From: Gemmatimonadales bacterium
GTDB taxonomy: Bacteria; Gemmatimonadota; Gemmatimonadetes; Gemmatimonadales; GWC2-71-9
Direction of reading: 5' to 3'
Length of the DNA: 64,000 nucleotides
Assembly: GCA_037189525.1 (NCBI GenBank)
Contig: JBBCJC010000005.1
Location: 416,001-480,000, forward strand
The notes below the pieces were generated by a model that was not told the origin of the DNA, made no database searches, and saw nothing but the letters and a program-made list of their open reading frames with translations. This document shows positions 1,625-63,667 of the stretch, piece by piece; within the stretch, counting starts at the first letter, position 1; each line of letters starts with the position of its first letter. The translations under genes were made by a program, and so were the position numbers.

Positions 1625-1631
1625 CACCAAA

Positions 1632-1669
1632 GCTCGAGGGCCGTGTCGTAGCCGGCACGGCCCTTGGGC
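1632..1669 (+). terminator. GC-rich hairpin after DUF2723 gene (terminator or processing stem)
   Basis: GCTCGAGGGCCGTGTCG-TAGC-CGGCACGGCCCTTGGGC; no U-tract. Confidence 0.45.
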
Positions 1670-1702
1670 CCACCCGGACGCGGCGTTAGCTTGCGTCCGC
1701 CA

Positions 1703-1789
1703 GGCGCGGTGGCAGAGCGGTTGATTGCACCGGTCTTGAAAACCGGCGAACCCGAAAGGGTTCCGTGAGTTCGAATCTCACCCGCGCCG
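1703..1789 (+). tRNA. tRNA-Ser(TGA)
   Basis: Acceptor GGCGCGG/CCGCGCC, anticodon arm CCGGT-CTTGAAA-ACCGG, long variable arm, GTTCGAAT T-loop, discriminator G; CCA not encoded. Confidence 0.97.
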
Positions 1790-1877
1790 TCGTCGTCCCA
1801 CACCCGCGTGACGCCACCCCGATCGTTCTTTCTGATTTCCGGAATGACTATTGGGCAGGACACGCAGCAGGTCCCGC

Positions 1878-2450
1878 ATGGTTCAGGTCCCTCCCCCGCA
1901 GGAAGCGCACTGGCCGGACGGCGCGATCTTCACCGTCGGACATTCGACCTTGCCGACCGATCGCTTCATCGCGCTGCTGCACACCTACGGCATCGAAACG
2001 CTCGCGGATATCCGCACGGTGCCACGGTCGCGGCACAACCCGCAGTTCAACGCCGACACCCTGGCAGAGAGCCTGGCAGCGGCGCAGATCCACTACGTGG
2101 CTATGACCGAACTCGGCGGCCTGCGCAAGCCACGCAAAGACTCGCCCAATCTGGGTTGGCGCAACGCCAGCTTCCGCGGCTACGCCGACTACATGCAAAC
2201 GGCCGCGTTCCGCGACGCCATCGACGTCCTGATCGGCATGAGCCGCCAACAGCGAGTGGCGATCATGTGCGCCGAGGCCGTGCCGTGGCGCTGCCACCGC
2301 TCTCTGGTCGCCGACGCCCTGCATCTGCGCGGCGTGCCCGTGATCGAGATTCTCTCGGCCACCAGCTATCGGTCCCACACCCTCACCCCGTTCGCGCACG
2401 TCGAGGGCACTTCGATTACCTATCCGCCCGATCAGGCCACCCTGCTCTGA
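1878..2450 (+). CDS. DUF488 family protein
   Basis: IFTVGHSTL, LADIRTVPRSRHNPQFN, LGGLRK and IMCAEAVPWRCHRSLVAD motifs. Confidence 0.9.
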   Translation: MVQVPPPQEAHWPDGAIFTVGHSTLPTDRFIALLHTYGIETLADIRTVPRSRHNPQFNADTLAESLAAAQIHYVAMTELGGLRKPRKDSPNLGWRNASFRGYADYMQTAAFRDAIDVLIGMSRQQRVAIMCAEAVPWRCHRSLVADALHLRGVPVIEILSATSYRSHTLTPFAHVEGTSITYPPDQATLL

Positions 2451-2515
2451 CCCGGAGGCCAGCCGCACCACGCGCCAGACTCACACACGCAAGGCGCGCA
2501 TGAACCCGTCGGACC

Positions 2516-4354: not shown

Positions 4355-4452
4355 GGGCTTCCTCCTCCGTCTGTCACCTGATCATCCTCGAGCTGGATCA
4401 ATCTGCCTCACCCGTCAGCGCCGCGCCACGAACCCTCCAGAAGGGCGCCGGT

Positions 4453-4480
4453 TCAGCTTTCAGCCACACCCTGCCGATAC
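4453..4480 (+). promoter_or_regulatory. Putative sigma28 (FliA-type) promoter
   Basis: TCAGCTTT-N12-GCCGATAC ending 7 nt before ATG 4488; the -10 closely matches the sigma28 consensus GCCGATAA. Confidence 0.55.
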
Positions 4481-4487
4481 TGTAGTC

Positions 4488-5708
4488 ATGCATACCGGCG
4501 ACGTCTTCATCGCGCGACAACCCATCCTCGACCGCAACGACCTGGTTGCCGGTTACGAGATCCTGTTCCGATCCGGCCCCGAAAACCGCTTTGCGGGCGG
4601 CGACGCCGACATGGCATCGAGCCAGGGCCTCGAACGGGCCCTGATGACCTTCGGATTCGACGAATTGACCAACGGCCGGCCGGCCTTCATCAATTTGTCC
4701 CGCCAGGTCCTCCTCACTGAACTGTACACCCTGCTTCCGGCCGATCGCTCCGTCATCGAGCTGCTGGAAACGGTCGAGCCGGACCACGAGGTCATCGCGG
4801 CCGTCGAGCGCCTCAAGAAGAGCGGATACCAGCTCGCCCTCGACGACTTCGTCTATACGCCGGCGGCCGACCCCCTGCTGGCCCTCGCCGATATCGTCAA
4901 GATCGACTTCCGGAATCCGGAGGCCACGACACCGGAGGCCATTGCCCGGGCCCGGAGCCATGGTGCCAGACTGCTGGCCGAAAAGGTCGAGACCCGCGAC
5001 GAACGGGACGCGGCGGCCGAGCAAGGGTTCGACTGGTTCCAGGGCTACTACTTCTGCCGGCCGGAGATGATGCAGAACCGGTCGCAGGCGCCCAGCCGGC
5101 TCAACTACCTCCGCATGCTCCGGGAAGTCGGCCAGCACGAGATCGAGTTCGAACGGGTCGAAGCAATCATCCGGGAAGAAGTGGCGTTCTCGGTCCGGCT
5201 ACTCCGGTACCTCAACTCGGCCGGCTTCGGATGGCGCCATCAGGTCGAGACGATCGACCACGCCCTCCGGCTCCTCGGTGTGAAACAGCTCCGGAAGTGG
5301 GTCTCGGCCGTGGCAACGGTCGGCCTCTCGAGCGGCAAGCCCCCGGAGCTGGTGACGACCGCGCTGCTCCGCGCCCGGCTGGCCGAGCTGCTCGCCGGAC
5401 CGGTCGGGCTCGACAACTCGGACCTCGACCTGTTCTTCGCGGGCCTCCTGTCCGTAATGGACGCCGTGATGGACCAGCCGCTCGAACAGCTGGTCGGCTC
5501 GCTCTCGCTCTCGCCACCATTGGCCGCGGCACTGCTCCGGCGGGAACCGCCGTTCGGTCCGGTGCTCGACCTGGTCGTCGCGCAAGAGCGCGGCGAATGG
5601 AGCCGGATGGAGGCCTTGGCCGAACAGCTCGGCGCCCGGACGACCCACGTTCAGGAAGCCTATCAGACCGCCTCGAACTGGGCTGCCGAAATCTCCAAAG
5701 CCGCCTGA
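4488..5708 (+). CDS. EAL + HDOD domain c-di-GMP signalling protein (YuxH/CdgJ-like)
   Basis: FIARQPI, GYEILFR, FINL, LALDDF, LLAEKVET and FQGYYF, followed by an HDOD region (LLRYLNSA...GLLSVMDA). Confidence 0.9.
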   Translation: MHTGDVFIARQPILDRNDLVAGYEILFRSGPENRFAGGDADMASSQGLERALMTFGFDELTNGRPAFINLSRQVLLTELYTLLPADRSVIELLETVEPDHEVIAAVERLKKSGYQLALDDFVYTPAADPLLALADIVKIDFRNPEATTPEAIARARSHGARLLAEKVETRDERDAAAEQGFDWFQGYYFCRPEMMQNRSQAPSRLNYLRMLREVGQHEIEFERVEAIIREEVAFSVRLLRYLNSAGFGWRHQVETIDHALRLLGVKQLRKWVSAVATVGLSSGKPPELVTTALLRARLAELLAGPVGLDNSDLDLFFAGLLSVMDAVMDQPLEQLVGSLSLSPPLAAALLRREPPFGPVLDLVVAQERGEWSRMEALAEQLGARTTHVQEAYQTASNWAAEISKAA

Positions 5709-5734
5709 CCCCCGGGCGATAATCGCCCGACCCC

Positions 5735-5784
5735 CGAGACCCCGAATTCGACCTTCACCTCGTCGAGCTCGGGGTCTCGCTTTT
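5735..5784 (+). terminator. Rho-independent terminator
   Basis: Stem CGAGACCCCGAATTCGAC / GTCGAGCTCGGGGTCTCG followed by CTTTT. Confidence 0.7.
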
Positions 5785-5816
5785 CCCCTCCGCTTCCCCA
5801 AAATCGGCCTCACCTC

Positions 5817-5920: not shown

Positions 5921-6361
5921 ATGCGTCAGATTCTTGAGGGGCGCCGACGCTCGCTGGCCCTGGTCGCGGTCATGATCGGCGGCTGCTCGTCCTTGGCACC
6001 TTCGGCCCCGGAGCTCCCGGTCGGGGCGGTCCGGATGTTGGCAGATACCGAATATCAGGTTTGGTTCGACCGCACCAAGGAGTGCAGTGGCCTTGGCGGT
6101 CAAATCAATGAAATTCAATGGTTTATCGTGCCTGGCGTAGAAACTTTCGAGACCTCGGCCGGTCCGAAGGTCGGGATGTGGGAAAAGACGGGCGGCGTCG
6201 CGCGGATCACGATCGCGGGAAATTATGCCCGGCACGAGATGGTGATCCGTCACGAAATGTTGCACCATCTGCTCGATCGCGAGGGTCACCCTGGCGAATT
6301 CTTTAGCGAACGGTGCCGGCTGACCTGGGAAACATGGTCGGATTCGCACCACGCCGATTGA
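5921..6361 (+). CDS. Hypothetical lipoprotein with HExxH zinc-binding motif
   Basis: Signal ending in lipobox IGGC; RHEMLHHLLDREGH; four Cys residues. Confidence 0.65.
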   Translation: MRQILEGRRRSLALVAVMIGGCSSLAPSAPELPVGAVRMLADTEYQVWFDRTKECSGLGGQINEIQWFIVPGVETFETSAGPKVGMWEKTGGVARITIAGNYARHEMVIRHEMLHHLLDREGHPGEFFSERCRLTWETWSDSHHAD

Positions 6362-6437
6362 TGCTTGAGTAGCACGGACCGCTGCTCGTAAGCGACACTG
6401 TTGGACCGAGGCCGCAATCGAGAGAACCGCCGGCCCG

Positions 6438-8348
6438 TCAGGGGGTGACGATCGTCCCCATCCGTACCACTTCGAAATCACTTCCGCGCAGCTGCTTCAG
6501 AGTATTCATCTGCGCATCGTTCCAGCGGGAGTCAGCGACGCCGCTGACATACCAGTCACTGCCGTTGTCGGCCACGATCATCCCGTACTTCTTGAGCGCC
6601 CGCAGCACCACCTGGGCGTGAGCCGGATACCCGGAGATATCGAAGCTCGCCTTGAGCCGAACCCGCATCCCCATCGGGGGCCGGTTGGTGGAGTTGTCGC
6701 TGCTGGCCCAGTGGCGAGCCGGATAGATATACGCCCGGCGGGTCCGGCTCACCGTGAACCGGAGCGCGTGGGTAATCTCCCCAGCCGCCACTTCGTCATA
6801 GCGAACCAGGCCCGGTAGAATCGGAAGCCCGGCCGCATCCGCCGAGGTCCAGCCCGCCGGCCGAAGCGCATTGGAGTTGAGATCGAAGATGGCGCCCGAC
6901 CCCGCCCGCCACGACCCATCGGGCTGCGGATAGGCAGCATACAACTCATAGAGCCGCCAGTTATCACGATCCACGACCAGCACGTGCCGATCGCCCGTCG
7001 ACGACGGTCCGCCTTCGATCGGCGCATTCGGCGGAATCGGATAGGGACCCGGATCGCTTTCGCTGCGATACTCGAATGACACCGGCACCCGCGCCTGAGT
7101 TCCCGAGACGACGATATAAGGAATCCCGAACGGACCACCGTTCCAGTTGGCGCCGAAATCGGGATGGAACCGCTTGGTCGGCCCGATTGCCGTGATGATG
7201 GCATCGGAGTTGGGATCCACCTGGGCCGTGTCGACCGGCTGGTTCCAGGGGTTATCCACAGGAAAAAGGCGGCGCCCTACCAGATCGGCATTAGGCCCCA
7301 GCCCAGCTGGCGGCGGGGGAGGCGGTGGTGGTGGCGGGGGTGGAGGAGGCGGCGGCGGTGGCGGCACCGGCGGGGCGACGAGGATCACCCTGCTGGTATC
7401 AGCAAACCCGGCCGTCGCGTGGCGAAACCAGATCAGATAGGCACCGGGAACGGACCCCGCCGTATATCGTCCGGCCGAAGACACCGATCCGCCGGTTGCT
7501 CCGAAGGTTCCGGATGCGCTGACGGTCGAACCGTCCGAGCGACGTGCCAGTACCGTGAACTGATGAGCCGCGCCGGGGTTCAGATTGACCGAGTCGGGGG
7601 AGAGTTCCACCGCGGTCAGGGTCGGTCCCGACGGCTCCGCCCGCACGACGACCACCGCGGTATCGGTGAACTCCTGCCCCGCCACGACCACCGAGGCCAT
7701 GATCCGGTAGGTCCCGATCGATGCGCCGGCCTGATACCGACCCGGCGTGCTGAAGGATCCCGCAATCGCGGACCACGCCGCCGTTGCCGTCATCGACAAC
7801 GGTGTCCCGCCCTCGTATTGAAGCCACGCCCCGAGCTCGAACACCCCTCGCGGCACCACCACGATCGAATCCGGCACGACCCAGAAGCGCTCGACGACCG
7901 GACCGGGCGGCGGGGGTGGCGGAGGCGGGGGCGGGGGCGGGGGCGGAGGTGGTGGAGAGGGCGGCGGTGGGGGCGGAGGCGGAGGAACCGGAGCAACGAT
8001 TTGAACCGAGGTCGATGCCGCGAGCGAAGTGCCGCGCAGAGCAGCGTCGACCCGGTAGTCGCCAGCCGTGGTCCCGGCCTGATACAATCCGGTGGCCGAG
8101 ATGACCCCGCCCTGAGCAGTGAAGACCACGTCCGTCTGCACGACTGTGTCTCCGAGCGCCCGGACGGCGCTGGCGGTGAACCGGAGCGTGTCCCCCGGTT
8201 CAAGCCGGGCCGATTCGGGCCTGATGACCAGCGACCTGAGCGCCAGGGGGTCGGGGCCAAGACCGTCCCGGCCGGGAGCGTCCTGACACGCCGAGACTAC
8301 GAGGAGTCCGGCGGACACGAGTACCCACTGCCAGTGCGATCGAGACAT
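6438..8348 (-). CDS. Secreted lipoprotein: Ig-like (Big_2-like) repeats, poly-proline linkers and a conserved-looking C-terminal domain of unknown function
   Basis: Lipobox VSAC; three beta-rich repeats ending GxYxAG..G.Y; P9-S-P17 and P19 runs; C-terminal FPVDNPWN...GIPY...ESDPGPYPIP...GDRH...GWTSADAAGLP...ADNGS. Confidence 0.75.
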   Translation of the reverse strand: MSRSHWQWVLVSAGLLVVSACQDAPGRDGLGPDPLALRSLVIRPESARLEPGDTLRFTASAVRALGDTVVQTDVVFTAQGGVISATGLYQAGTTAGDYRVDAALRGTSLAASTSVQIVAPVPPPPPPPPPSPPPPPPPPPPPPPPPPPGPVVERFWVVPDSIVVVPRGVFELGAWLQYEGGTPLSMTATAAWSAIAGSFSTPGRYQAGASIGTYRIMASVVVAGQEFTDTAVVVVRAEPSGPTLTAVELSPDSVNLNPGAAHQFTVLARRSDGSTVSASGTFGATGGSVSSAGRYTAGSVPGAYLIWFRHATAGFADTSRVILVAPPVPPPPPPPPPPPPPPPPPPPAGLGPNADLVGRRLFPVDNPWNQPVDTAQVDPNSDAIITAIGPTKRFHPDFGANWNGGPFGIPYIVVSGTQARVPVSFEYRSESDPGPYPIPPNAPIEGGPSSTGDRHVLVVDRDNWRLYELYAAYPQPDGSWRAGSGAIFDLNSNALRPAGWTSADAAGLPILPGLVRYDEVAAGEITHALRFTVSRTRRAYIYPARHWASSDNSTNRPPMGMRVRLKASFDISGYPAHAQVVLRALKKYGMIVADNGSDWYVSGVADSRWNDAQMNTLKQLRGSDFEVVRMGTIVTP

Positions 8349-53816: not shown

Positions 53817-54245
53817 ATGCGGTTTTCCCTGATCATCATCCCGCTCGTCATGGGCGCCTTTGCACTGGTCAACGCCCGTAAGCTGGGCAAGAATCCGGAG
53901 ATCCGGCGGGACCATGTGCAGATGCTCTATGCCATGGGCGCCCTACTGCTGTTGCTGCCGGTGGCCCTCGAGCTCGGGATCTGGGGCCTGGCCGTCATCC
54001 TGGTCATCGCGGGCATCATCTACCTCTGGCTGGCGCAGCAAGCTGCGCACCTGCCGGGCGCCAATCCGCGCGGCGACGTTCTGATGGCCTGCATCCTGTT
54101 CGTTGCCGGAGGGCTCTGCGGCTGGACGGCGCTGACGGGCCGTCCGGTCCCGCCCTGGGTCATCCTGCTGCTCCTGCTGGTCGGCGCGGTGGGGCGGCCG
54201 CTCCTCAAACGCCTGGGCCGACCGCCCGCCCAGGGCGGCGCCTGA
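53817..54245 (+). CDS. Hypothetical membrane protein
   Basis: SD GAGGAGGT; about five hydrophobic segments. Confidence 0.7.
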   Translation: MRFSLIIIPLVMGAFALVNARKLGKNPEIRRDHVQMLYAMGALLLLLPVALELGIWGLAVILVIAGIIYLWLAQQAAHLPGANPRGDVLMACILFVAGGLCGWTALTGRPVPPWVILLLLLVGAVGRPLLKRLGRPPAQGGA

Positions 54246-54357
54246 CCGTTCGCCCCGGCGCCATCGAAGTCTCCAGGTAACTCCCGGTCCGGACAGCGCG
54301 CAGTAGATTTCGGGATTCCCCTTTGAACCCGTGAGGGCATCCGCCCGGGAGGCTCCG

Positions 54358-54843
54358 ATGAGATACGCTCGTCCTGCCATCGTCGTCTGGTCGCTGCTGG
54401 CCATCGTCGGGTGCGGTCGCAAACCCGCTGCCGACCAGGAAACGCCGCCGGCTTCAGCGCCGGCCGACACTGCGGCGGCTGCGCATGCGGGCCACGGCGC
54501 CGGGCACACGATCGTCGATCGTGACTGGCACCTGACCTCGGTCGGCACCCTGGTCAATCCTCGCGGTGCCGGCGACCAGCCCGTCACACTCCGATTCGAC
54601 ACGGCCGCCAACCGCGCCGCCGGCTTCGCAGGCTGCAACCGCTACTCGGCCAACTATGCTCTGGTCGGCGACAGCCTGCGCTTCCTGGCCCCGATCTCGA
54701 CCAAGATGGCCTGCGATCGCGGCATGGATGTCGAAGACGCCTATCTCAAGGTGCTCGAGCAGGTCCTGTCCTACACAGCAACCGACTCGACCCTGACGCT
54801 GACCGGCGCCTCCGGGTCGCTGGCCCAGTTCCGCGCTCCTTGA
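54358..54843 (+). CDS. META-domain lipoprotein (HslJ-like)
   Basis: Lipobox IVGC; WHL, GFAGCNRY, STKMAC. Confidence 0.9.
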   Translation: MRYARPAIVVWSLLAIVGCGRKPAADQETPPASAPADTAAAAHAGHGAGHTIVDRDWHLTSVGTLVNPRGAGDQPVTLRFDTAANRAAGFAGCNRYSANYALVGDSLRFLAPISTKMACDRGMDVEDAYLKVLEQVLSYTATDSTLTLTGASGSLAQFRAP

Positions 54844-54884
54844 GGGAGACGGCTCCTCGGATGCACCGGTAACCGGTTAGGCGG

Positions 54885-55616
54885 ATGGCGCTCCGGGAAG
54901 AACTGGAACGGAGCGGCGCCTGGCTCTTCCGATATCGGAGCTGGGTTCCGCCCCTCGTGCTCGTGCTGCTCATCTTTGCGGGGTCCGGCGGCAAAGATCC
55001 CGCAGGACTTTCACCGATCGGGACGGTCATCGGCCTGTGCGTAGCTGGCCTCGGACTCCTCCTCCGCGCCTGGGTCATCGGCCATGCCCCCTCGGGAACC
55101 TCGGGCAAAAACCGGGCGCTGCAGGTCGCGGACTCCCTCAGTACCACGGGCCCCTATTCCCTGGTTCGCCATCCCCTTTACCTGGCCAATTACCTGCTCT
55201 GGATCGGCCCGGCTCTGGCTCTGGGCATCTGGTGGCCCCCGGTTCTCGTTTCGCTCCTCTTCGCGTTATACTACGAGCGCATCATGTTCGTCGAGGAGGA
55301 ATTCCTCCGACGGACGTTCGGGCCCCGGTATCTCACGTGGGCCGCCCAAACTCCTGCATTCGTTCCACGTTTCTCCTGCTGGCAGCCCGCAGCCCTGCGA
55401 TTTTCGCTGCGGACGGTGCTTCGGCAAGAGTACTACGCATGGTTCTCGACGGTGGCACTCTTCGTGCTCCTCGAGGTGGGAATCCGGTTCGTCGACACCG
55501 GCCGATTGGCGCTTCCCCGTCCCTGGATCGGGTTGCTGCTGGTCACTGCGGTCGTCGCTAGTGTGTTGCGCACACTTCAACGGTACACCAAGGTGCTCCA
55601 TGTCGAAGGCCGCTAG
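54885..55616 (+). CDS. ICMT/PEMT-family membrane methyltransferase, lipid A phosphate methyltransferase (LmtA)-like
   Basis: MALREELERSGAWLFRYRS, GTSGKN...QVADSLSTTGPYSLVRHPLYLAN, YYERIMFVEEEFL. Confidence 0.8.
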   Translation: MALREELERSGAWLFRYRSWVPPLVLVLLIFAGSGGKDPAGLSPIGTVIGLCVAGLGLLLRAWVIGHAPSGTSGKNRALQVADSLSTTGPYSLVRHPLYLANYLLWIGPALALGIWWPPVLVSLLFALYYERIMFVEEEFLRRTFGPRYLTWAAQTPAFVPRFSCWQPAALRFSLRTVLRQEYYAWFSTVALFVLLEVGIRFVDTGRLALPRPWIGLLLVTAVVASVLRTLQRYTKVLHVEGR

Positions 55617-56346
55617 GCTCGCCATTGGTTTCTCCCTGGTCGGATCGCTCTTCCCCGCTTTATCCTCAGCGCAACAGACTCAATCCTTCGCCGTTCCCGA
55701 CCTGCCAACTCTGGAATTCAGCCGGGTTCCGATTCTCGACCGGGACGAGGGGCTCAAGGTCGCCGGCCTGGTCCTGCTGGCCGCCACATTGGACGGGACG
55801 GTGCAGCGCCAGTCGCAGGCGATGCGCGGCTCCGGCAGCAATCGGGTGGCCGAATGGGGCAATGCCGCCGGCCACCTGCGTTACATGGGGCCGGTCCTCG
55901 CGGCAGGCTGGGCGGTGGGCCAGATCGGCGGCCGCTCCCAGCTTTCCCGCGCAACCGCACAGGCCACCAGTTCGGGCCTGATTGCCGGTGGCATCGTCAC
56001 CGTCCTCAAACGGGGATTCGGGCGGCTCCGTCCGCGAGACGGTTCCTCGGAGCATTTCGCCCCGTTCAGCGACCATAGCGCGTTCCCCTCAGGCCACACC
56101 ACCCTTGCCGTCGCCATTGCCACCAGCCTGGCACACTCGACCGAGAACAAGACCGTCGACGCCATGCTCTATGGCACCGCGGCGCTGACGGGATTCGCGC
56201 GTATCAACGACAACAAGCACTGGTTTTCCGACGTCGTGGCGGGCGCCGCCCTGGGCTACCTGGTGGGCCGGCAAGTCAACGCAGGCCTCAAGGACACTCG
56301 GCCGCTGATCGGGCCCGGCCTGGCGGGGTTGTCGATCTCCTTCTGA
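55600..56346 (+). CDS. PAP2-family phosphatase
   Basis: KRGFGRLRP, FPSGH, ARINDNKHWFSDV; N-terminal signal peptide. Confidence 0.9.
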   Translation: MSKAARLAIGFSLVGSLFPALSSAQQTQSFAVPDLPTLEFSRVPILDRDEGLKVAGLVLLAATLDGTVQRQSQAMRGSGSNRVAEWGNAAGHLRYMGPVLAAGWAVGQIGGRSQLSRATAQATSSGLIAGGIVTVLKRGFGRLRPRDGSSEHFAPFSDHSAFPSGHTTLAVAIATSLAHSTENKTVDAMLYGTAALTGFARINDNKHWFSDVVAGAALGYLVGRQVNAGLKDTRPLIGPGLAGLSISF

Positions 56347-56454
56347 ACGGTTCTCTCCTGGAAAGCGCACCATCGAGTTTGACGTAACCCGGTCCGCCCA
56401 TCCGTAGTTAGATTCATGGCAGTTCCAACCGCAATCTCATTCTCGAGAGAGACC

Positions 56455-57579
56455 ATGACGTCACGTCGCACCTTCGTCCGTTCCCTGGCCGCCACCAGCG
56501 GTGCGCTGTCTTTCGGCCTGCCGAAGGGCCTCTGGGAACGAGCCGAAGCGCTTCCGCGCCAAGGCAAGCCGCTCAACATTCTGATTCTGGGAGGGACCGG
56601 ACAGACGGGGCCATTCCAGATTCACTACGCCGTGGCCCGCGGGCACAAGGTGACGGTGTTCAACCGTGGCCGGCGTCAGGCGGAGCTGCCCGCCGGCGTC
56701 GAGCACCTGGTCGGCGACCGGAACGACAACCTCGAAGCGTTGAAGGGCAGCAAGACGTGGGATGTCATCATCGACAACCCGACCACGTTTCCCCGCTGGG
56801 TCCGCAGCGCCGGCGAGGTCCTCAAGGGGCGGACCGGCCAGTACGTTTTCATCTCGACCATTTCGGTTTTCGACAAGTGGGACCAGCCGAACATGGACGA
56901 GAATGCGCCGCTCGCGACCATGCCCGATCCCACGGTCGAAAACATGCAGTATTACGGCGCGATGAAAGCGCTCTCCGAACAGGAATCGGAGAAGTACTAC
57001 CCCGGCAAAGTCACCGTGATCCGGCCCGGACTCATCTCCGGACCGCGGGATGAGACCGACCGATTCAGCTACTGGCCGATCCGGGTTGCCCGCGGCGGAG
57101 AGGTTCTGACCGCGCCGCTCGATCACTTCGCCCAGATCATCGACGGCCGCGACCTCGCCGAATGGACCATTCGGATGTGCGAGGCGCGAACCTATGGCAT
57201 CTATAACGCCACCGGACTGTCCATGACCCACGGCGAGATGCTGAACGGGATCCGATCTGCACTCGCGAGCGAAATCCAGGGGACGGTCACACTGACCTCG
57301 CCCGACCTCGCGTTCCTCAGGGAACAGAAGGTTCGGCCCTGGTCCGAATTGCCGGTCTGGATGCCCAATGAAGGTGACACCAAGTACTGGAACAAATGCA
57401 TCGTCTCGAAAGCGATCGCAGCCGGTCTGACTTTCCGGCCGTTTGCCACCACGGTGCAGGATACGCTTGCTTGGCACAAGACGCGCCCCGCTGAGAGCCA
57501 GGCCAAGCTCCGCTCCGGCTTGGCACCGGAGCGCGAGGCGGAACTCCTCAAGGCGTGGCACGCCCGGAAACCATCCTGA
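56455..57579 (+). CDS. NAD(P)-dependent epimerase/reductase (atypical SDR) with Tat signal
   Basis: MTSRRTFVRS twin-Arg signal; ILILGGTGQTG Rossmann motif; YGAMK (YxxxK); RPGLI. Confidence 0.88.
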   Translation: MTSRRTFVRSLAATSGALSFGLPKGLWERAEALPRQGKPLNILILGGTGQTGPFQIHYAVARGHKVTVFNRGRRQAELPAGVEHLVGDRNDNLEALKGSKTWDVIIDNPTTFPRWVRSAGEVLKGRTGQYVFISTISVFDKWDQPNMDENAPLATMPDPTVENMQYYGAMKALSEQESEKYYPGKVTVIRPGLISGPRDETDRFSYWPIRVARGGEVLTAPLDHFAQIIDGRDLAEWTIRMCEARTYGIYNATGLSMTHGEMLNGIRSALASEIQGTVTLTSPDLAFLREQKVRPWSELPVWMPNEGDTKYWNKCIVSKAIAAGLTFRPFATTVQDTLAWHKTRPAESQAKLRSGLAPEREAELLKAWHARKPS

Positions 57580-58931
57580 GTACGACCGCCCCGACCGGGC
57601 CGAGTGCTCCGGTCACCCGCTTGCTGCAGCGTGTCGTCGAGGTGCGCCCGGATGAAGTCCGGGCGCTCCTGCTTTCCTGCGGGTACTTCTTCTGCATTCT
57701 CTCGGCCTGGTTCATCATGCGGCCGATTCGCGAGCAGACCGGTGTGGCCGGCGGGATCAACAACCTGCCCTGGCTCTACACCGGCACCCTGATCGCAACG
57801 CTGGTGGTGCATCCGCCCTTTGCCGCGCTGGTTGCGCGGCTGCCGCGCCGGACCTTCGTCACCATCGCCAACCGGTTTTTTCTCACCAACATCCTGATTT
57901 TTTTCGGGCTCTTCCAGACGCTGCCGGAGTCGCAGCTGGTCTGGCTGGGCCGGGCCTTCTTCGTCTGGACCAGCGTCTTCAGCCTCTTCGTGACGTCGGT
58001 CTTCTGGTCGTTCATGGTCGACGTCTTCCGGACCGACCAGGCCAAGCGGCTCTTCGGTTTCATCGGGTTCGGCGGAACGTTAGGCAGCGTGACCGGCGCG
58101 GCCGTGACCGCCACGCTCGCGCCCCGGATCGGACCGGTCTATCTCTTCCTCGCCTCCGCTGTGCTGCTCGAGCTGGCGGTGCAATGCGCCCGCCGCCTGG
58201 GTACGGCGTCGGCCTCTCTGGGAAAATCCGCGAACGCTGCCGCGGGCGAGGCGCTGATCGGCGGGCAGGCGTTGGCCGGCATCAAGCATGTCCTGCGGTC
58301 GCCCTACCTGCTCAATATCTGCCTGTACATGCTGTTGTTTACGATCGGGTCGACCGTCCTGTATTTCCAGCAAGCCCAGATTGCGGTGCAGTCCTTTACC
58401 GACCGGGCGGGACAGACGGCGTTTTTTGCGCGGATCGACCTCGCCGTCAATATCCTGACCCTGCTCACGCAGGCGTTCCTGACAGGCCGTCTGATCAAGA
58501 CGCTGGGCGTGTCGATCACGCTGGCCTTGCTCCCGGCGCTGACCCTGATCGGCTTCCTGGCGCTGGGGACTTTCCCGGTTCTCGTGGTATTCGTGGTGTT
58601 TCAGGTGCTCAGGCGGGCGGGCGAGTATGCCGTCGCGCGACCGACGCGCGAGGTGCTCTACACCGTGCTCGATCGGGAGGACAAATACAAGGCCAAGCAC
58701 TTCATCGACACGTTCGTCTATCGCGGGGGCGACCAGGTCGGGGCGTGGAGCATGCGCGGGCTGACGGCGCTCGGGCTCGGATTTGCCGGCGCGTCCTACC
58801 TGGCCGCTCCCTTTGCCGCCATCTGGTTAGGCATTGCGCTCTGGCTGGGCCGCCGCCATGCCGTGCTGGCGCAGCTCAGCGAGGCGGGTCGAGTTCCAGC
58901 AGCGCCAGGCGGCTCGACGCAATCCCTCTGA
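57555..58931 (+). CDS. MFS transporter, NTP/NDP exchange (NTT/AAA)-like family
   Basis: IMRPIRE, SVFWSFMVDVF...QAKRLFGFIG.GG, RPTREVLYT, KYKAKHFIDTFVYRGGD. Confidence 0.88.
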   Translation: MARPETILSTTAPTGPSAPVTRLLQRVVEVRPDEVRALLLSCGYFFCILSAWFIMRPIREQTGVAGGINNLPWLYTGTLIATLVVHPPFAALVARLPRRTFVTIANRFFLTNILIFFGLFQTLPESQLVWLGRAFFVWTSVFSLFVTSVFWSFMVDVFRTDQAKRLFGFIGFGGTLGSVTGAAVTATLAPRIGPVYLFLASAVLLELAVQCARRLGTASASLGKSANAAAGEALIGGQALAGIKHVLRSPYLLNICLYMLLFTIGSTVLYFQQAQIAVQSFTDRAGQTAFFARIDLAVNILTLLTQAFLTGRLIKTLGVSITLALLPALTLIGFLALGTFPVLVVFVVFQVLRRAGEYAVARPTREVLYTVLDREDKYKAKHFIDTFVYRGGDQVGAWSMRGLTALGLGFAGASYLAAPFAAIWLGIALWLGRRHAVLAQLSEAGRVPAAPGGSTQSL

Positions 58932-59742
58932 GGCCGTCCGTTCGGTCGGCAAAATAGGAATCCTGCTCGGCCGGTCCGACGGTTTCCAAAACCCGGAAGC
59001 CGGTCGCCTCGACGGCGGCCACGAATGCGGCTTCCGTCGGCTGCGCACGATGCGCCCCAAAGCGTCCCTGCGCAAACGACTCCAGCGCCCGATCTTTGGT
59101 CCGCGGCCCGGAGTCTCCAGCAACGACATAGTCGACCGCGACCCGACTGCCGGGGGCCGCGACCTCCGCCAGACCATGCAGGACATCGACCAACCGATGC
59201 CCGTCGAGGCAGCGCGAGAAGCCCATCCAGGAAAAGAACGCGGGCCGGTGAAAGCGAAAGGTCGAGCGGCGGAGCGCCTCATGCAGCGGCTCGCGCGCGT
59301 CGTCCATCGCAATCCATTCGAGGTTATCGGGCTCGAGCCCCAGACTGCTGACCCGATCACGCTTGGCGCGCTGAGCGGCCGCGCGATCGACCTCGAAGAC
59401 CCTGAGCTGATTGGCCAGATCGGTGCGCCTGAGCGCAAACGAATCGAGCCCCGCCCCGACCAGGACGTACTGCCGCCCTCCGGCCTCGACGAAATGCTCG
59501 AGCCAGTCTTCGACGATTCGAGCCTGATACAGCAGATGGCCCCGAAACGGCCGGTACTTTCCGTAGAGTTGCTCGAACACGAAGTGTCGGAGAAACCCGT
59601 AACGGCAGATGGCGCGCCACCCCGGGCTCGCAAGCCGGAGCGCAAACGGATCAGCGAAAATGAGCGGCCGTTCGTCCCGGTAATGCGCTGCACGGAACGC
59701 TGCCGCCAGGTCGGCGACCCGATCAGGCAAAGCAGTCAGCAT
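58876..59742 (-). CDS. Class I SAM-dependent methyltransferase (LCM/Rv-type)
   Basis: FRAAH, FADPFA, QYVLVGAGLDSFALR, FEVD; convergent overlap with the MFS gene. Confidence 0.8.
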   Translation of the reverse strand: MLTALPDRVADLAAAFRAAHYRDERPLIFADPFALRLASPGWRAICRYGFLRHFVFEQLYGKYRPFRGHLLYQARIVEDWLEHFVEAGGRQYVLVGAGLDSFALRRTDLANQLRVFEVDRAAAQRAKRDRVSSLGLEPDNLEWIAMDDAREPLHEALRRSTFRFHRPAFFSWMGFSRCLDGHRLVDVLHGLAEVAAPGSRVAVDYVVAGDSGPRTKDRALESFAQGRFGAHRAQPTEAAFVAAVEATGFRVLETVGPAEQDSYFADRTDGLRGIASSRLALLELDPPR

Positions 59743-59827
59743 CGGCAATTCGATTTGTTGAGGCTTGGTCCTACGATGGCCAGCGGTACAATACCGTCTA
59801 CCGGCGATTTTGGCGAGGGGTCCGACA

Positions 59828-59857
59828 GCCCTGGCGCCTCATCACAGGCGCCAGGGC
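59828..59857 (-). terminator. Perfect 12-bp hairpin downstream of peroxiredoxin
   Basis: GCCCTGGCGCCT-CATCAC-AGGCGCCAGGGC. Confidence 0.5.
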
Positions 59858-59867
59858 CGAAAGTCGG

Positions 59868-60503
59868 TCAGCGATTCGGCTGAGGCGTAACTCGGAGGTA
59901 GGGCTTCTTGGTAACCCACCCCTTGGGGAACTTGGTTTTGGCGTCGTCGTCGGAGACGGCCGGGACGATGATGACGTCCTGCCCGTCCGTCCAGTCAGCC
60001 GGCGTCGAGACCTGGTAGGTGGCCGTCAGCTGAAGCGAGTCGATGACCCGCAGGATCTCCTCGAAGTTCCGTCCGGTGCTGGCCGGATAGGTCAGCGTCA
60101 GCTTGATCTTGTTGTCGGGCCCGATCACGAAGACCGACCGGACCGTCATCGTATCGGAGGCATTGGGGTGGATCATGCCGTAGAGGCCCGCAACGGCGCG
60201 ATCCGGATCACCGATCATGGGGAAGTTGACGGTGTTGCCGGTGACTTCGGCAATGTCACCCTCCCATTGAACGTGCGACGTGACCGGGTCGACGCTCAGG
60301 CCGATGACCTTGGTATTGCGCCGGTCGAACTCGGGCTTGAGCTTGGCAACCGCACCCAGTTCGGTGGTACAGACCGGCGTGAAGTCCTTCGGATGAGAAA
60401 AGAGCACCGCCCAGCTGGTGCCTTTCCACTCATGAAACCGGAGGGAACCCGCGGTCGTATCCGCCGTGAAATCCGGGGCGATGTCGCCGAGCTGCAGTGC
60501 CAT
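59868..60503 (-). CDS. 1-Cys peroxiredoxin (Prx6 family)
   Basis: FSHPKDFTPVCTTELG, YPASTGRNF, TPADW. Confidence 0.96.
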   Translation of the reverse strand: MALQLGDIAPDFTADTTAGSLRFHEWKGTSWAVLFSHPKDFTPVCTTELGAVAKLKPEFDRRNTKVIGLSVDPVTSHVQWEGDIAEVTGNTVNFPMIGDPDRAVAGLYGMIHPNASDTMTVRSVFVIGPDNKIKLTLTYPASTGRNFEEILRVIDSLQLTATYQVSTPADWTDGQDVIIVPAVSDDDAKTKFPKGWVTKKPYLRVTPQPNR

Positions 60504-60577
60504 GTCGAGCCATCCTTTACAAGGGGTTGAGGAACCCTCGCAAACTAGTCGGCAGCCCCGATCCGGCAAGATCCGGT

Positions 60578-63500
60578 TCAGGCACCTCGGCGGTTCACGG
60601 CACGACGCGCCACCCATCGCTCGACCACGACATACAGGGTCGGTAACACCACCAGGGTGAGGGCGGTCGCCGTAACCAATCCGCCGATCACGACGGTCGC
60701 CAGCGGACGCTGGAGTTCCGCGCCCGGTGAGGTCGACAGCGCCATCGGTACGAAGCCGAACCCGGCCACCAGCGCCGTCATCAGCACCGGCCGAAGTCGG
60801 GTCGATGCGCCCTCGAGCACCGCGTCTTCGAGTGTCGAGCCGGCCGCACGGAGTTCGTTGATATAGCTCACCATCACGACACCATTGAGGACCGCAATAC
60901 CGAAGAGCGCAATGAAGCCGATCGCGGCCGAGATACTGAGGTTGAGCCCGCTGATCCAAAGGGCCGCGACCCCGCCAACCAGAGCGAACGGCACGTTGGT
61001 CATGATCAGCGCCGCGTGACGCCCAGTGCCGAACGCCCAGAAGAGCAGCAGAAAAATTCCCAGGATGGCCAGCGGTACCAGAATCCCCAGCCGCTTCATG
61101 GCGCTCCGCTGGTGCTGATACTGGCCGCCCCACTCGAAGCGATACCCTTCAGGCAACGGCACCGCCTTGGCCAGCGCCGCCGAGGCATCTTCGACGAAGC
61201 TGCCGACATCCCGACCCCGAATGTTGGCGCCGACGACAACCATGCGCTCAGCCCCTTCGTGCGCAAACGCTTCGGGCGCCTCGACGACCCGGAGTCGCGC
61301 CACCGCGGCAAGCGGAACGCGCCCTCCGGCCTGAGTCGGCACCGGCAGCTCCGCAAACCCTTCGGGACTCAGAGTCGACGCGCCGGGCATCCGTATCGCC
61401 ACTCCGATCCGGCGAGGACCATCGACCACCGTCGTCGCCACCGAGGCGCCGAGCGCCAGCTCGACCTCGCGTCCGACATCGGCAGCTCCGATGCCGTACC
61501 TGGCCAGCGCGTCGCGATCCAGATCGAGCTGCATCTGATGCACCCGCGCCGCCGCCGTTGCCTTGACCTCGGCCGCGCCGCGAACATCGCGCAGCACCGA
61601 TTCCACCCGGCCCGCGAGCGTAGCCAGCCGATCGGGATCGGCACCGATGACTTTGACTCCGACATCGGTAGTAATGCCGCTCTCGGCTTCATCGAGACGC
61701 ATCTGAATCGGCTGGGTGAACGCGTAGTTGATCCCGGGCACTTCGCGAAGCGCGCTGTCCATGGCCGCCAGCAGCGCATCCTTCCCGCCGCGACGCCAGG
61801 TCTTGCGCGGCTCCAGGATAATGTAGGTATCGGACTCGTAGGTGCCCATCGCCTCGGTGGCCAGATCCGGCCGGCCGAGCTTGGACACGACGGTGCGTAC
61901 CTCCGGCAATCCCTGGAGGGACCGCTCGATGGCCAGCGAGTACTCGACCCCATCACCCAGCGCCGTCGACGGCAGCCGGCGCGCCTGGACCAGCACGCTG
62001 CCCTCATCGAGCCGAGGCATGAACTCCCGGCCGAGTTGCCCGATCCCGATGATCGCCAGAACGATCAACGCCCCTGCCCCGGCAAAGACCGACGTCTGGC
62101 GCACCAGCGTCCCTTCGAGCAACCGACGGTACCGCGCCTTGAGGCGTTCGAACCCGGCCGAGTGGGGCTCGTGGGCGTGAGCCAGCCAGGTGCGCGCAGC
62201 TGCCGGCACCACGGTGAGGGCCAGCACCAGCGACCCGAGCACCGCCACCACCACGGTGAACGCCATGGGCACGAACATTTTTCGCTCGGTACCCTGGAGG
62301 GCAAAGAGCGGGAGATACACTGCAATGATGATGATGATCCCGAAGAGGACCGGCCGGCCGACCTCTCGCGCCGCGCGATGCAGTCGATCGGTCGTATCTT
62401 CGGCGGACTCCGGTCCGGTCGCCGAGCGGCGCAACATGTTCTCGATCATCACGACGGATCCGTCGACCAGCAGGCCGAAGTCGAGCGCGCCCAGGCTCAT
62501 CAGATTGGCGGAGAATCCGAACCACTTCATCGCGACGAAGGCCCAGAGCATCGACAGCGGAATCACCGCGGCGACGATCAGGCTCGCGGTCACGTTGCGA
62601 AGGAAGACCCAGAGCAGCACCACCACCAGCATGCCACCCATGACCAGATTTTTTCCGATCGTGGCGGTCGTCTGTTCCACCAGCTCGGTCTGATCGTAGA
62701 AGGCCACCAGTTCGACACCCGGCGGCAGCGTCGTGGTGATCTCGTCCACGCGGGCTTTGATGCGGGCAATGACACGCTGGGCGTTCTCGCCCTTCCGCAT
62801 GATCACCATGCCCGAGACCACTTCGCCCTTGCCGTCCCAGGTAATGGCGCCCTGCCGAGGTAGCGACCCGGTGGTCACCTGCGCGATGTCGCGAATCAGG
62901 ATCGGGACGCCACCTCGCGTGGCCACGGGCACCCGCTCGATATCGGCCGGCCCGGTAAGTCGTCCACGGCCATATACGATGAAACGCTCACCCCGCTCCT
63001 CGGTGTGCGCGCCGCCGAAGTTGGTATTGTTGGCCGCAAGCGCCGCTTCGACCTGGGACAACGACAGTCCAGCCAGGGCAAGACGGCGCGGATCAACCAC
63101 GACATGATACTGCTCGGTCTCACCGCCCCAGCTGTTGACTTCCGCCACGCCCGGCACCGTCCGCAGCATCGGCGCCAAGGTATAGTCCTGGAGCGTCTTG
63201 AGCTGGCCGAGTCCCCACTCCTTCGTCCGGCTGGTGAGCACGTACTGGTACACTTCGCCCATGGCGGTCGAGACGGGACCCAGCACGGGTGTTACCCCGG
63301 CAGGCAGGTCCGCGGCGACATCACCGAGCCGCTGCGCAACCAGTTGCCGCGCAAAGTAGCCGTCAACCCGATCTTCGAAGATGACCTGGGTGATCGCCAG
63401 CCCGAACTTGGTGGTCGAACGTACCGCCGTGGCGCCCGGCAGGCCGAGCAGAGCCCGTTCGATCGGAAAGGTGACCAGCTGCTCGACTTCCTGCGGCGCA

Positions 63501-63667
63501 ATGCCAGGTGCGTCCGCAATGACGCTGACGGCATTGGCCGTGATATCGGGAAAGGGCTCGAACGGAATGGTCCGAAAGGCCCAGAGGCCCAAACCGATGA
63601 GGAGCGTCGTACCGCCGGCAATGAACCAGCGACGATCGAGCGAGAACCGCAGCAGTCGGCTCAGCAC
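60578..63667 (-). CDS. CusA/CzcA-family heavy-metal RND efflux permease
   Basis: PDIT, EVEQLVTFPIE, ANLMSLGALDFGLLVDG, RLRPVLMTA, GAELQRPLATVVIGG. Confidence 0.95.
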   Translation of the reverse strand: MLSRLLRFSLDRRWFIAGGTTLLIGLGLWAFRTIPFEPFPDITANAVSVIADAPGIAPQEVEQLVTFPIERALLGLPGATAVRSTTKFGLAITQVIFEDRVDGYFARQLVAQRLGDVAADLPAGVTPVLGPVSTAMGEVYQYVLTSRTKEWGLGQLKTLQDYTLAPMLRTVPGVAEVNSWGGETEQYHVVVDPRRLALAGLSLSQVEAALAANNTNFGGAHTEERGERFIVYGRGRLTGPADIERVPVATRGGVPILIRDIAQVTTGSLPRQGAITWDGKGEVVSGMVIMRKGENAQRVIARIKARVDEITTTLPPGVELVAFYDQTELVEQTTATIGKNLVMGGMLVVVLLWVFLRNVTASLIVAAVIPLSMLWAFVAMKWFGFSANLMSLGALDFGLLVDGSVVMIENMLRRSATGPESAEDTTDRLHRAAREVGRPVLFGIIIIIAVYLPLFALQGTERKMFVPMAFTVVVAVLGSLVLALTVVPAAARTWLAHAHEPHSAGFERLKARYRRLLEGTLVRQTSVFAGAGALIVLAIIGIGQLGREFMPRLDEGSVLVQARRLPSTALGDGVEYSLAIERSLQGLPEVRTVVSKLGRPDLATEAMGTYESDTYIILEPRKTWRRGGKDALLAAMDSALREVPGINYAFTQPIQMRLDEAESGITTDVGVKVIGADPDRLATLAGRVESVLRDVRGAAEVKATAAARVHQMQLDLDRDALARYGIGAADVGREVELALGASVATTVVDGPRRIGVAIRMPGASTLSPEGFAELPVPTQAGGRVPLAAVARLRVVEAPEAFAHEGAERMVVVGANIRGRDVGSFVEDASAALAKAVPLPEGYRFEWGGQYQHQRSAMKRLGILVPLAILGIFLLLFWAFGTGRHAALIMTNVPFALVGGVAALWISGLNLSISAAIGFIALFGIAVLNGVVMVSYINELRAAGSTLEDAVLEGASTRLRPVLMTALVAGFGFVPMALSTSPGAELQRPLATVVIGGLVTATALTLVVLPTLYVVVERWVARRAVNRRGA

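Follow-up and report, generated by a model that had tools for sequence, protein, structure and literature searches.

What a carrier related to the NTT translocators could be doing beside an oxidoreductase that is predicted to be exported is the question raised by two genes of the window, i.e., the whole 64,000-nucleotide stretch of Gemmatimonadales contig JBBCJC010000005.1 that was analysed. Such a pair joins two puzzles, namely the role of NTTs in free-living bacteria and the source of reductant for periplasmic NAD(P) enzymes. On the former, Major et al. 2017 (PMC5381601), whose set includes two Gemmatimonadetes sequences, describe NTT-type carriers as widespread in free-living bacteria, with a function there that is unknown. 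On the latter, Dhakephalkar et al. (J Biol Chem 2024, PMC11087976) state that in the periplasm "there is no free NADH", and acknowledge as a puzzle the source of the reducing equivalents of CerR, an NDUFA9-like ceramide reductase of Caulobacter, which is of the SDR type, has a conserved NADH site and was shown to be periplasmic, and for which its authors propose electron transfer via a membrane partner. The pair in the window represents one instance of a module of two genes that is widespread, composed of an NTT-like MFS carrier gene and the gene of a Tat-signal NAD(P)-type oxidoreductase, and no earlier description of this pairing was found in the literature. The features concerned are as follows.

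56455..57579, forward strand: ORF1, Tat-signal extended SDR gene (ATG start, 374 aa; ORF list, Pfam PF01370)
56455..56550, forward strand: predicted twin-arginine signal peptide, residues 1-32 (SRRTFVR, h-region, AEA, then L33)
56590..56610, forward strand: Rossmann dinucleotide-binding motif GGTGQTG, residues 46-52 (sequence, invariant glycines)
56953..56967, forward strand: catalytic Y167-x3-K171 of the SDR, with S134 upstream (sequence, homologue alignment)
57555..57579, forward strand: overlap of the SDR 3' end and the carrier 5' end, 25 nt if GTG 57555 is the start
57555..58931, forward strand: ORF2, NTT-like MFS carrier gene (GTG start, 458 aa, 12 predicted helices; Pfam TLC and MFS_1)

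ORF1 encodes an extended SDR, as found from its Pfam match (Epimerase, PF01370, E 1.2e-8, 35.2 bits against a cut-off of 20.9), its GxxGxxG and S...YxxxK motifs and its two-domain Rossmann fold. The preliminary description of a Rossmann/YxxxK enzyme with an SRRTFV Tat signal is borne out by this match and by the motifs, given that R4, R5, F7, G46-G49, G52, S134, Y167 and K171 are all invariant in 35 aligned SDR homologues. When the AF2 model (pLDDT 84.4, with low confidence at residues 16-30) was searched with Foldseek, the top matches were all extended SDRs (E about 1e-14 to 1e-12), with NDP-sugar epimerases/dehydratases such as WbmG (2pzm, E 1e-14) in the lead at 13-19% identity. A search of PDB chains with the SDR sequence gave no match, and the SDR family profile gave weak Rossmann-region matches alone (E 4e-4 or worse). 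The triplet N70-R71-G72 is also invariant after the second strand of the SDR, where an acidic residue is absent, and from this, by SDR rules, the enzyme presumably prefers NADP(H), which is the preference predicted here.

Tat signals lie at the N-terminus, where an S/T-R-R-x-F-L-K motif is combined with an h-region of weak hydrophobicity and with an AxA site. The N-terminus of ORF1, which could alternatively begin at the ATG at 56416, reads MTSRRTFVRSLAATSGALSFGLPKGLWERAEA and then LPRQ, i.e., S-R-R-x-F-V-R, a mildly hydrophobic stretch and A-E-A, and its layout of S3-R4-R5-T6-F7-V8-R9, LAATSGALSFGL and A30-E31-A32 has the motif, h-region and AxA site of Tat substrates, so that a periplasmic location is predicted for the enzyme. 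The Pfam model TAT_signal (PF10518), a weak model of 21 positions, gave no match to ORF1 at E<=0.01; it matched an F420_oxidored partner at another locus (L107) with E 8.4e-4. TatC (PF00902) is encoded in the same genome at G000:C3:440030-440668 (E 1.4e-59, over the cut-off).

That the 3' end of the enzyme gene overlaps the NTT-like reading frame, as had been noted beforehand, holds with the GTG start at 57555; the closest relative aligns from residue 1. The 25-nt overlap is conditional on this start codon, because the later starts TTG 57621 and GTG 57642 give a gap of 41 or 62 nt and no overlap. Such an overlap suggests translational coupling, and the projected gap between SDR and carrier is zero or less in 29 of 47 related loci (the SDR-linked genome loci among the best 80 matches per scan). 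A scan of positions 54000-60600 returned no promoter-like and five terminator-like sites, not above shuffled sequences, and is uninformative on the limits of the operon. An apparent SDR-carrier fusion ORF at locus L041 was rejected, as the frames of the two genes differ and the upstream frame is merely open.

The carrier is a distant but specific homologue of the NTT translocators. Pfam TLC (PF03219) matches ORF2 with E 1.6e-7 and 31 bits against a cut-off of 21, over residues 243-402 alone (profile positions 275-454), and in the genome profile scan the same model gave 19.8 bits, or 27.4 when neighbouring pieces are included; MFS_1 matches with E 1.3e-6, and the NCBIfam model of NTP/NDP exchange transporters (TIGR00769) fails, with 24.4 bits against a cut-off of 387.2. 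The family profile of the carrier matched 9j3n (E 1.5e-26) and 9j3j (E 3e-21) in the PDB, structures that reportedly come from Lin et al. in 2025, followed by OxlT at 2.6e-4. With the AF2 model (pLDDT 90.6), five NTT entries rank first in Foldseek, with TM scores of 0.69-0.71 to 9j3n, 9j3l and 9j3m, whereas the MFS proteins that follow, SPNS2, FLVCR1 and LacY, reach 0.58-0.63. The solved NTTs (C. pneumoniae NTT1, 9j3n/9j3o; AtNTT1, 9j3j/9j3l/9j3m; PF03219; TC 2.A.12) share with the carrier the 12-helix MFS fold, R-x-x-K/R-D in TM1, a basic residue in TM10 and K-x-K-x-x-x-D in TM11; in the alignment, R56, R59, R354, K379, K381 and D385 fall on R, K or D of both and R390 on an Arg of the C. pneumoniae protein. 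The carrier differs from them in being only 16-20% identical and about 50 residues shorter, in its free-living host and in its partner gene, which encodes a predicted exported oxidoreductase. The family is large, with 1372 clusters (50% identity) at E<=1e-30 and 9719 at E<=1e-3.

On the other hand, the residues tied to adenylate transport are replaced. In AtNTT1, mutants assign K155 to ADP binding, E245 to translocation and K527 to ATP binding (PMC3306366), and these sites, taken from that mutant study, were mapped with a chain offset of 84, which fits all three (K71, E161 and K443). In the alignment the corresponding positions in the carriers hold F/Y or G (in LPWL(F/Y)TGT), S140 and a near-invariant D393, and none of the three AtNTT1 residues is conserved.

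Whether NTT-like genes of free-living bacteria recurrently lie beside Tat-signal NAD(P) enzymes was the check proposed with the preliminary description, and it came out positive in six phyla, many of the bacteria being from soil and water, for SDR and AKR partners and, in addition, for F420_oxidored/STEAP-like ones. The survey covered 160 loci with carrier relatives, taken as the best 80 matches of each of the scans, a sampling of the family that is not random and that includes the near-duplicates L103/L105 and L131/L137; neighbour families were called by tblastn, and adjacency meant an SDR, AKR or F420_oxidored homologue within 450 bp of the carrier. Among these best matches such a homologue was present at 119 of the 160 loci, on the strand of the carrier in 116 of the 119. 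When the count is restricted to the 102 loci in which the carrier is flanked by 1.3 kb or more on each side, an NAD(P) oxidoreductase is adjacent in 86 (54 of 64 from genomes, 32 of 38 from metagenomes) and lacking in 16, or about 16%, again among the best 80 per scan. For a random gene the chance of such a neighbour is estimated at well below 1%, because the genome holds seven SDR copies and one Tat-signal AKR in 4.65 Mb; the adjacency is thus far above chance. No other family is conserved near the carrier, given that the next clusters occur in at most 13 of 80 loci and the two checked by coordinates are opposite-strand ORFs overlapping the carrier or SDR gene; likewise, in the 80 loci clustered, the pair has no conserved neighbours for catabolism, regulation or uptake across the outer membrane. 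One of the loci, L074, was binned to Chloroflexota, whose envelope may be without an outer membrane.

The partner enzymes have three unrelated folds, namely the extended SDR (PF01370), the aldo-keto reductase (AKR, PF00248) and F420_oxidored (PF03807), the nearest solved relatives of the last being the NADPH domains of STEAP3/4 and F420:NADP oxidoreductase (FNO), and what they have in common is the use of NAD(P) and the RR signal. A fourth type, 2-Hacid_dh, was seen once, truncated, at L113. Among the best 80 matches per scan, the RR signal was called by script in 90 of 110 adjacent SDR/AKR genes; of those missed, five are truncated at the end of a contig, and in at least six others RR can be read by eye. 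The signal is present in 8 of 8 adjacent F420_oxidored genes. Most loci, including the one in the window, have the signal-bearing enzyme alone. In 16 of the 47 SDR-linked genome loci (best 80 per scan) there are two or three tandem SDR copies, and in at least nine of these 16 one copy starts with M-PLNILILGGTG or MALRILVLGG and has no room for a signal peptide; in the AKR-linked loci looked at, no signal-less AKR or F420_oxidored copies were seen.

The two genes also tend to occur together. In a set of 301 Gemmatimonadota genomes, the carrier is present in 102 of the 105 that have the SDR and was not detected in the other three, as against 54 of the 196 genomes without the SDR; by hand tally, in family f1 (n=124), where the two genes are rare, 12 genomes have both, one the SDR only and one the carrier only. 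The present genome has seven Tat-signal SDR paralogues (RR in 7/7), one Tat-signal AKR and two carriers, and six of the seven SDR paralogues and the second carrier are unpaired, in heterogeneous contexts. That the carrier is functionally linked to exported NAD(P) enzymes, which was one part of the earlier shuttle reading, is well supported by adjacency and co-occurrence; its other part, the reduced/oxidised dinucleotide as cargo, is still something that we infer.

Partner type must have changed at least 15 times on the tree of 134 carriers; at well-supported branches, at least four changes are forced for SDR and at least six for AKR. Over the same 134 sequences, 82 positions are at least 90% identical. 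Ten of these are basic residues that lie within helices or where helices end (R56, R59, R133, R165, R312, R353, R354, K379, K381 and R390), six or seven of them inside and not at the ends, as placed from the helix limits of the model. Only four columns are partner-specific, and just one, V/A172, separates SDR-linked from AKR-linked carriers. By these alignments the polar core is unchanged across partner types, which fits a single polyanionic cargo whatever the enzyme.

It is tentatively proposed, at rather less than even confidence, that the cargo of the carrier is a nicotinamide dinucleotide, probably NADP(H), taken across the inner membrane for use by the enzyme that is predicted to be periplasmic. 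The partners would be exported by Tat, the cargo would be their common element, the cofactor, and the carrier would be an exchanger, as NTTs are, in which case the membrane potential would favour the movement of NADPH outwards against NADP+ inwards. A single carrier could serve several exported enzymes; seven Tat-signal SDRs and one Tat-signal AKR stand against two carriers in this genome. Still more tentative is the generalisation that many free-living diderms have a usable pool of NADP(H) on the outer side of the cytoplasmic membrane, where an NTT-derived NADPH/NADP+ exchanger would power Tat-exported SDR, AKR and STEAP/FNO-like reductases.

Against NADP(H) as the cargo speak the replaced AtNTT1 residues, the TIGR00769 score far under its cut-off and the TLC match to the C-terminal third only, and also the 16 of 102 unpaired loci, the unpaired paralogues, the three SDR genomes without a carrier and the Chloroflexota locus L074, while a free periplasmic pool of dinucleotide could be at risk of leak or hydrolysis. 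The Tat route is the export of proteins that bind their cofactor beforehand, and its use by all partners counts against free periplasmic NADP(H), because Sec export would then do. In addition, extended SDRs of the epimerase/dehydratase type can run on permanently bound NAD+. In a second explanation, rather unlikely in our judgement, NAD(P) is loaded ahead of Tat export and stays in the enzymes without exchange, in the manner of glucose-fructose oxidoreductase (GFOR) or of transient oxidation of the GalE type, and what the carrier moves, into the cell or out of it, is a substrate or product of theirs, likely an anionic metabolite such as a keto-sugar acid. It would account for the Tat route of every partner, for the SDR model being nearest to bound-NAD+ epimerases/dehydratases and for the lost adenylate residues; another SDR paralogue of this genome adjoins an ordinary MFS_1 transporter (L090), and ketogluconate reductases occur in each of the AKR, SDR and 2-hydroxyacid dehydrogenase families, with weak DkgA/DkgB matches obtained here. 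Yet in AKRs and FNO/STEAP-type domains NADPH is a co-substrate, consumed at each turnover, and we know of no redox-neutral, prosthetic use of the cofactor by them. This explanation also requires one common solute for three unrelated enzyme families, because the polar core of the carrier is the same in SDR-linked and AKR-linked clades; the missing catabolic, regulatory and uptake genes argue against it, and sugar or monocarboxylate transport usually needs fewer intramembrane basic residues than six or seven.

A bound cofactor exported by Tat is also compatible with a malate-valve-like shuttle, in which a cytoplasmic enzyme reduces a small metabolite with NADPH, the carrier swaps its reduced and oxidised forms and an exported, NADP-bound paralogue oxidises it again, handing the hydride on to a target in the periplasm. 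The exchange mode of NTTs and the tandem SDRs of 16 of 47 loci, at least nine of them with a signal-less copy, are in its favour; but those copies may instead be exported as heterodimers with the Tat-signal copy ("hitchhiker" Tat export), the exported enzyme stands alone in most loci, that of the window included, the AKR-linked loci looked at lack signal-less copies, and ping-pong enzymes would be required in three families. This shuttle is judged improbable. Very improbable, finally, is an ordinary importer that scavenges nucleotides or nucleoside phosphates, with adjacency due to co-regulation or gene-order inertia. The homology to NTTs, the uridine kinase gene directly upstream of the carrier in a carrier-only genome (L178) and the roughly one in six fully flanked loci without an oxidoreductase neighbour would suit it; it is opposed by the three enzyme families, six phyla, overlapping or near-abutting frames and repeated switching of partners, by the joint gain and loss of SDR and carrier in family f1 and by the replacement of the ATP/ADP residues.

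The NADP(H) cargo proposed here has parallels in known systems, none of which is the same. Glucose-fructose oxidoreductase (GFOR) of Zymomonas mobilis is Tat-exported, periplasmic and NADP-containing, and its product sorbitol is then taken up; it differs in belonging to the Gfo/Idh/MocA family, in that its NADP stays bound and in having no associated NTT-type carrier gene. DsbD/CcdA and MsrQ bring reducing power derived from cytoplasmic NAD(P)H to periplasmic enzymes, but by passing electrons via thiols or haem and not a soluble cofactor, with an unrelated fold. The CerR system, in turn, does not involve an NTT-like gene, and a PF03219 profile scan of 14 control genomes, Caulobacter vibrioides among them, gave no match. 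As to cargo, Major et al. 2017 (PMC5381601) cite NTT4 of Protochlamydia amoebophila (PamNTT4) and Npt1 of C. trachomatis as NTTs that carry NAD+, a precedent within the family that makes a nicotinamide dinucleotide plausible; as described there, these import host NAD+ into intracellular bacteria, whereas here a supply to the bacterium's own periplasm is proposed.

The module is conserved and portable, and in it NAD(P) enzymes with export signals, of three unrelated folds, are paired with an NTT-like carrier. If its cargo were NADP(H), this would be a new way to energise extracytoplasmic chemistry, beside conduits of the DsbD/MsrQ type, and a first function for the widespread NTTs of free-living bacteria; such a pool would overturn the rule of no periplasmic nicotinamide cofactor and would matter for the engineering of periplasmic biocatalysis. 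If the cargo were a metabolite, the module would still define a large uncharacterised transporter family with a clear physiological handle.

The NADP(H) reading needs no stable complex of enzyme and carrier. A shared docking surface between the two is unlikely, because the partner folds are unrelated. When fusions of the carrier were sought, none of the 14 fusion matches joined it to an oxidoreductase, and all were of the known NTT-HEAT and NTT-HEAT-cNBD types, at 27-31% identity.

The window, G000:C5:416001-480000, belongs to a 4.65-Mb genome (98% complete) whose close protein relatives are named Gemmatimonadales at source. The genome encodes TatC, and the two genes under study adjoin each other on the same strand:

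56455-57579 (+): ORF1, SDR gene, 374 aa, Pfam Epimerase (PF01370)
57555-58931 (+): ORF2, NTT-like carrier gene, 458 aa, with a partial, weak match to Pfam TLC

The N-terminus of ORF1, MTSRRTFVRSLAATSGALSFGLPKGLWERAEA/LPRQ, is followed by GGTGQTG, S134 and Y167-x3-K171, and the protein reaches 35.2 bits against Pfam Epimerase, for which the cut-off is 20.9. Residues R4, R5, F7, S134, Y167 and K171 and the glycine motif are invariant in 35 aligned homologues, and the N-R-G after strand 2 of the SDR is likewise invariant. By its AlphaFold model (pLDDT 84.4, with low confidence in residues 16-30), ORF1 is an extended SDR; among solved structures, its closest matches in fold are NDP-sugar epimerases and dehydratases, which share 13-19% identity with it. 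The motifs, together with the Pfam, profile and structure matches, thus confirm the preliminary description of a Tat-signal NAD(P)-type oxidoreductase beside an NTT-like carrier gene, while the overlap of the two genes that it also described amounts to 25 nt and holds provided that ORF2 starts at the GTG at 57555. All seven SDR paralogues of this genome have an RR signal, and it also contains one Tat-signal AKR and two carriers, the pair in the window being its only adjacent carrier-enzyme pair.

ORF2 scores far under the cut-off of the NCBIfam NTP/NDP-exchanger model. A profile built from 51 of its relatives, however, matches the solved NTTs of C. pneumoniae (9j3n, E 1.5e-26) and Arabidopsis (AtNTT1, 9j3j, 3e-21), with the next match at 2.6e-4, and the ORF2 model (pLDDT 90.6, 12 long helices) superposes best on the solved NTTs (TM 0.69-0.71), the next MFS proteins, SPNS2, FLVCR1 and LacY, giving 0.58-0.63. 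Identity reaches 90% or more at 82 positions across the 134 carriers, and the conserved positions include ten basic residues lying within helices or at helix ends. In the alignment, R56, R59, R354, K379, K381 and D385 have basic or acidic counterparts in each of the two solved NTTs; for R390, the counterpart in the C. pneumoniae NTT is an Arg. In AtNTT1, mutation of K155 abolishes ADP binding, that of K527 ATP binding, and that of E245 exchange (PMC3306366). K155, E245 and K527, each of which can be placed in 9j3j with a chain offset of 84, are not kept, the aligned carrier residues being F/Y or G, S140 and a near-invariant D393, so that the binding site, as read from the alignment, differs from that of the ATP/ADP translocator.

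The pairing itself recurs. The loci compared are the best 80 around carrier relatives in species genomes and the best 80 from metagenomes, for which the family alignment served as query; they form a best-matching slice of a family numbering thousands of clusters and include near-duplicates. Adjacency was taken as an SDR, AKR or F420_oxidored homologue within 450 bp of the carrier. Where the flanks were full (at least 1.3 kb each side), a partner lay beside the carrier in 54 of the 64 genome loci and 32 of the 38 metagenome loci, with 16 of these 102 loci having no partner-family neighbour; where they were short, the figures were 11/16 and 22/42. Neighbour and carrier share a strand in 116 of the 119 adjacent cases, and the genome loci span Gemmatimonadota, Acidobacteriota, Pseudomonadota, Myxococcota, Methylomirabilota/Rokubacteria and Chloroflexota, around whose carriers ORF clustering found no other recurrent gene family.

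Among the 80 genome loci, an SDR homologue is directly upstream of the carrier, on its strand, in 47 and downstream in two; 16 of the 47 have tandem SDRs in two or three copies, and the projected gap between SDR and carrier is zero or less in 29. An AKR adjoins the carrier in many loci without an SDR, with RR signals in all eight N-termini inspected, and further loci present an RR-signal F420_oxidored neighbour of about 250 aa (PF03807), whose nearest solved relatives are the STEAP3/4 NADPH-binding domains and F420:NADP oxidoreductase. The order AKR, F420_oxidored, carrier is found in L108, L109, L110 and L084, and at one locus (L113) the neighbour is a truncated 2-hydroxyacid dehydrogenase. 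A script called the RR signal in 90 of 110 adjacent SDR and AKR genes; the 20 misses comprise five contig-end cuts, at least six with RR and a hydrophobic stretch by eye, and a remainder that includes three apparent frame-shifts and three truly signal-less tandem SDR copies. That the carrier and an NAD(P) enzyme of predicted export constitute a real and widespread functional module is therefore well supported.

In the INDEPENDENCE and co-occurrence analysis, partner type was clustered on the FastTree phylogeny of 134 carriers, yet at least 15 changes are needed, well-supported branches forcing at least four for SDR and at least six for AKR, and the F420_oxidored-linked carriers form a single clade inside the AKR-linked ones. 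Given these repeated changes, the carrier-enzyme link has been retained while the enzyme family was exchanged. In 301 evenly sampled Gemmatimonadota genomes, the SDR (E<=1e-40) occurs in 105 and the carrier (E<=1e-10) in 156; 102 genomes have both, three the SDR without the carrier and 54 the carrier without the SDR. If the carrier match is required to be strong (E<=1e-60), there are 100 genomes with both, five with the SDR only, ten with the carrier only and 186 with neither, counts which, coming from related genomes, are not independent. In two of these ten carrier-only genomes the gene next to the carrier is a Tat-signal AKR, and in one other an AKR lies about 1 kb upstream.

Full-text searches on periplasmic NADPH, twin-arginine AKRs and free-living NTTs turned up no prior account of this pairing. 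In the excerpts available, Major et al. 2017 (PMC5381601) report NTTs in free-living bacteria, including two Gemmatimonadetes and three Acidobacteria sequences, place NAD carriers within the NTT lineage, and leave the function in free-living bacteria open, with no neighbourhood analysis; the 2024 Caulobacter CerR paper (PMC11087976) states the problem of a periplasmic enzyme with an NADH site in a periplasm without NADH.

The traits common to the partner families are NAD(P) use, by family, and an export signal, and partner type affects four alignment columns only in the 134 carriers, one of which (V/A172) splits the SDR-linked from the AKR-linked. Given the near-identical carrier core and the conserved basic residues across partners, the cargo is likely polyanionic and the same for all partner enzymes, which points to a shared cofactor. 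The carrier falls in the only MFS lineage known to transport nucleotides, and the AKRs, the FNO/STEAP-type domains and the N-R-G of the SDR presumably indicate NADP(H) over NAD(H). The best single reading, held tentatively, is that the carrier moves NADP(H) as cofactor for the exported enzymes. By analogy with the NTT exchangers, it would exchange NADPH (out) for NADP+ (in), which would carry one net negative charge outward and hence be favoured by the membrane potential.

Ranked only a little lower is the alternative that the exported enzymes hold their cofactor permanently and the carrier moves their substrate or product. Enzymes that take up their cofactor in the cytoplasm classically leave it through Tat, which suits a permanently bound cofactor, as in GFOR and GalE-type chemistry; however, one solute would then need to serve three enzyme families, and AKRs and FNO-like enzymes are not known to use a permanently bound cofactor. 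A metabolite redox shuttle, which the signal-less tandem SDR copies would favour, is improbable; these copies may instead travel out with a Tat-signal partner.

The surroundings of the pair in the window contain the following genes:

54885-55616 (+): PEMT/ICMT-like membrane methyltransferase gene, upstream of the SDR
~55591-56346 (+): PAP2 phosphatase gene, just upstream of the SDR
58876-59748 (-): SAM-dependent methyltransferase gene (Pfam LCM, E 2.5e-30; TIGR00027, 110 bits)
59868-60500 (-): 1-Cys peroxiredoxin gene (AhpC-TSA and 1-cysPrx_C)
60578-63667 (-): 1029-aa ORF, RND-type efflux pump-like by sequence and length alone

The LCM methyltransferase gene is convergent with the carrier gene, their 3' ends overlapping by about 56 nt (58876-58931). 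The related locus L015 too has a PAP2 gene on the upstream side (603-1463), which is not kept in other loci.

Two SDR paralogues of the same genome have contexts of their own. In L090 (G000:C3:576318-589418), an ordinary MFS_1 transporter (E 6.5e-31) precedes a Tat-signal SDR (4549-5799 and 5995-7101, both +), forming a second enzyme-plus-MFS pair with another transporter family. In L091 (G000:C13:39746-52891), the SDR has aconitase-X genes (AcnX and swivel domain) on one side and a DUF6065 gene on the other, and an S9 peptidase is encoded farther upstream, a setting that tentatively suggests a link of this copy to proline or hydroxyproline.

Among other carriers, many genomes of the Gemmatimonadota families f6 and f7 have two NTT-like paralogues (~40% identity) back to back on opposite strands (e.g., G133:C1:2452368-2455186; also L061 and L070). 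The metagenome loci L162, L164 and L170 belong to a distant subgroup (39-40% identity) with a MAPEG-family gene divergently upstream, and L162 and L164 have an RDD-family gene downstream; no oxidoreductase neighbour was found in the three, the L170 sequence stopping 36 bp beyond the carrier. Glucose-6-phosphate dehydrogenase is a typical source of NADPH, and a single locus, L084 of an alphaproteobacterial MAG, has the order G6PD_C, Tat-AKR, Tat-F420_oxidored, carrier (1024-5329). Finally, in three loci with close carrier relatives and no SDR, an S15 X-Pro dipeptidyl-peptidase gene lies upstream of the carrier, immediately so in L033 and one gene farther in L016 and L019.
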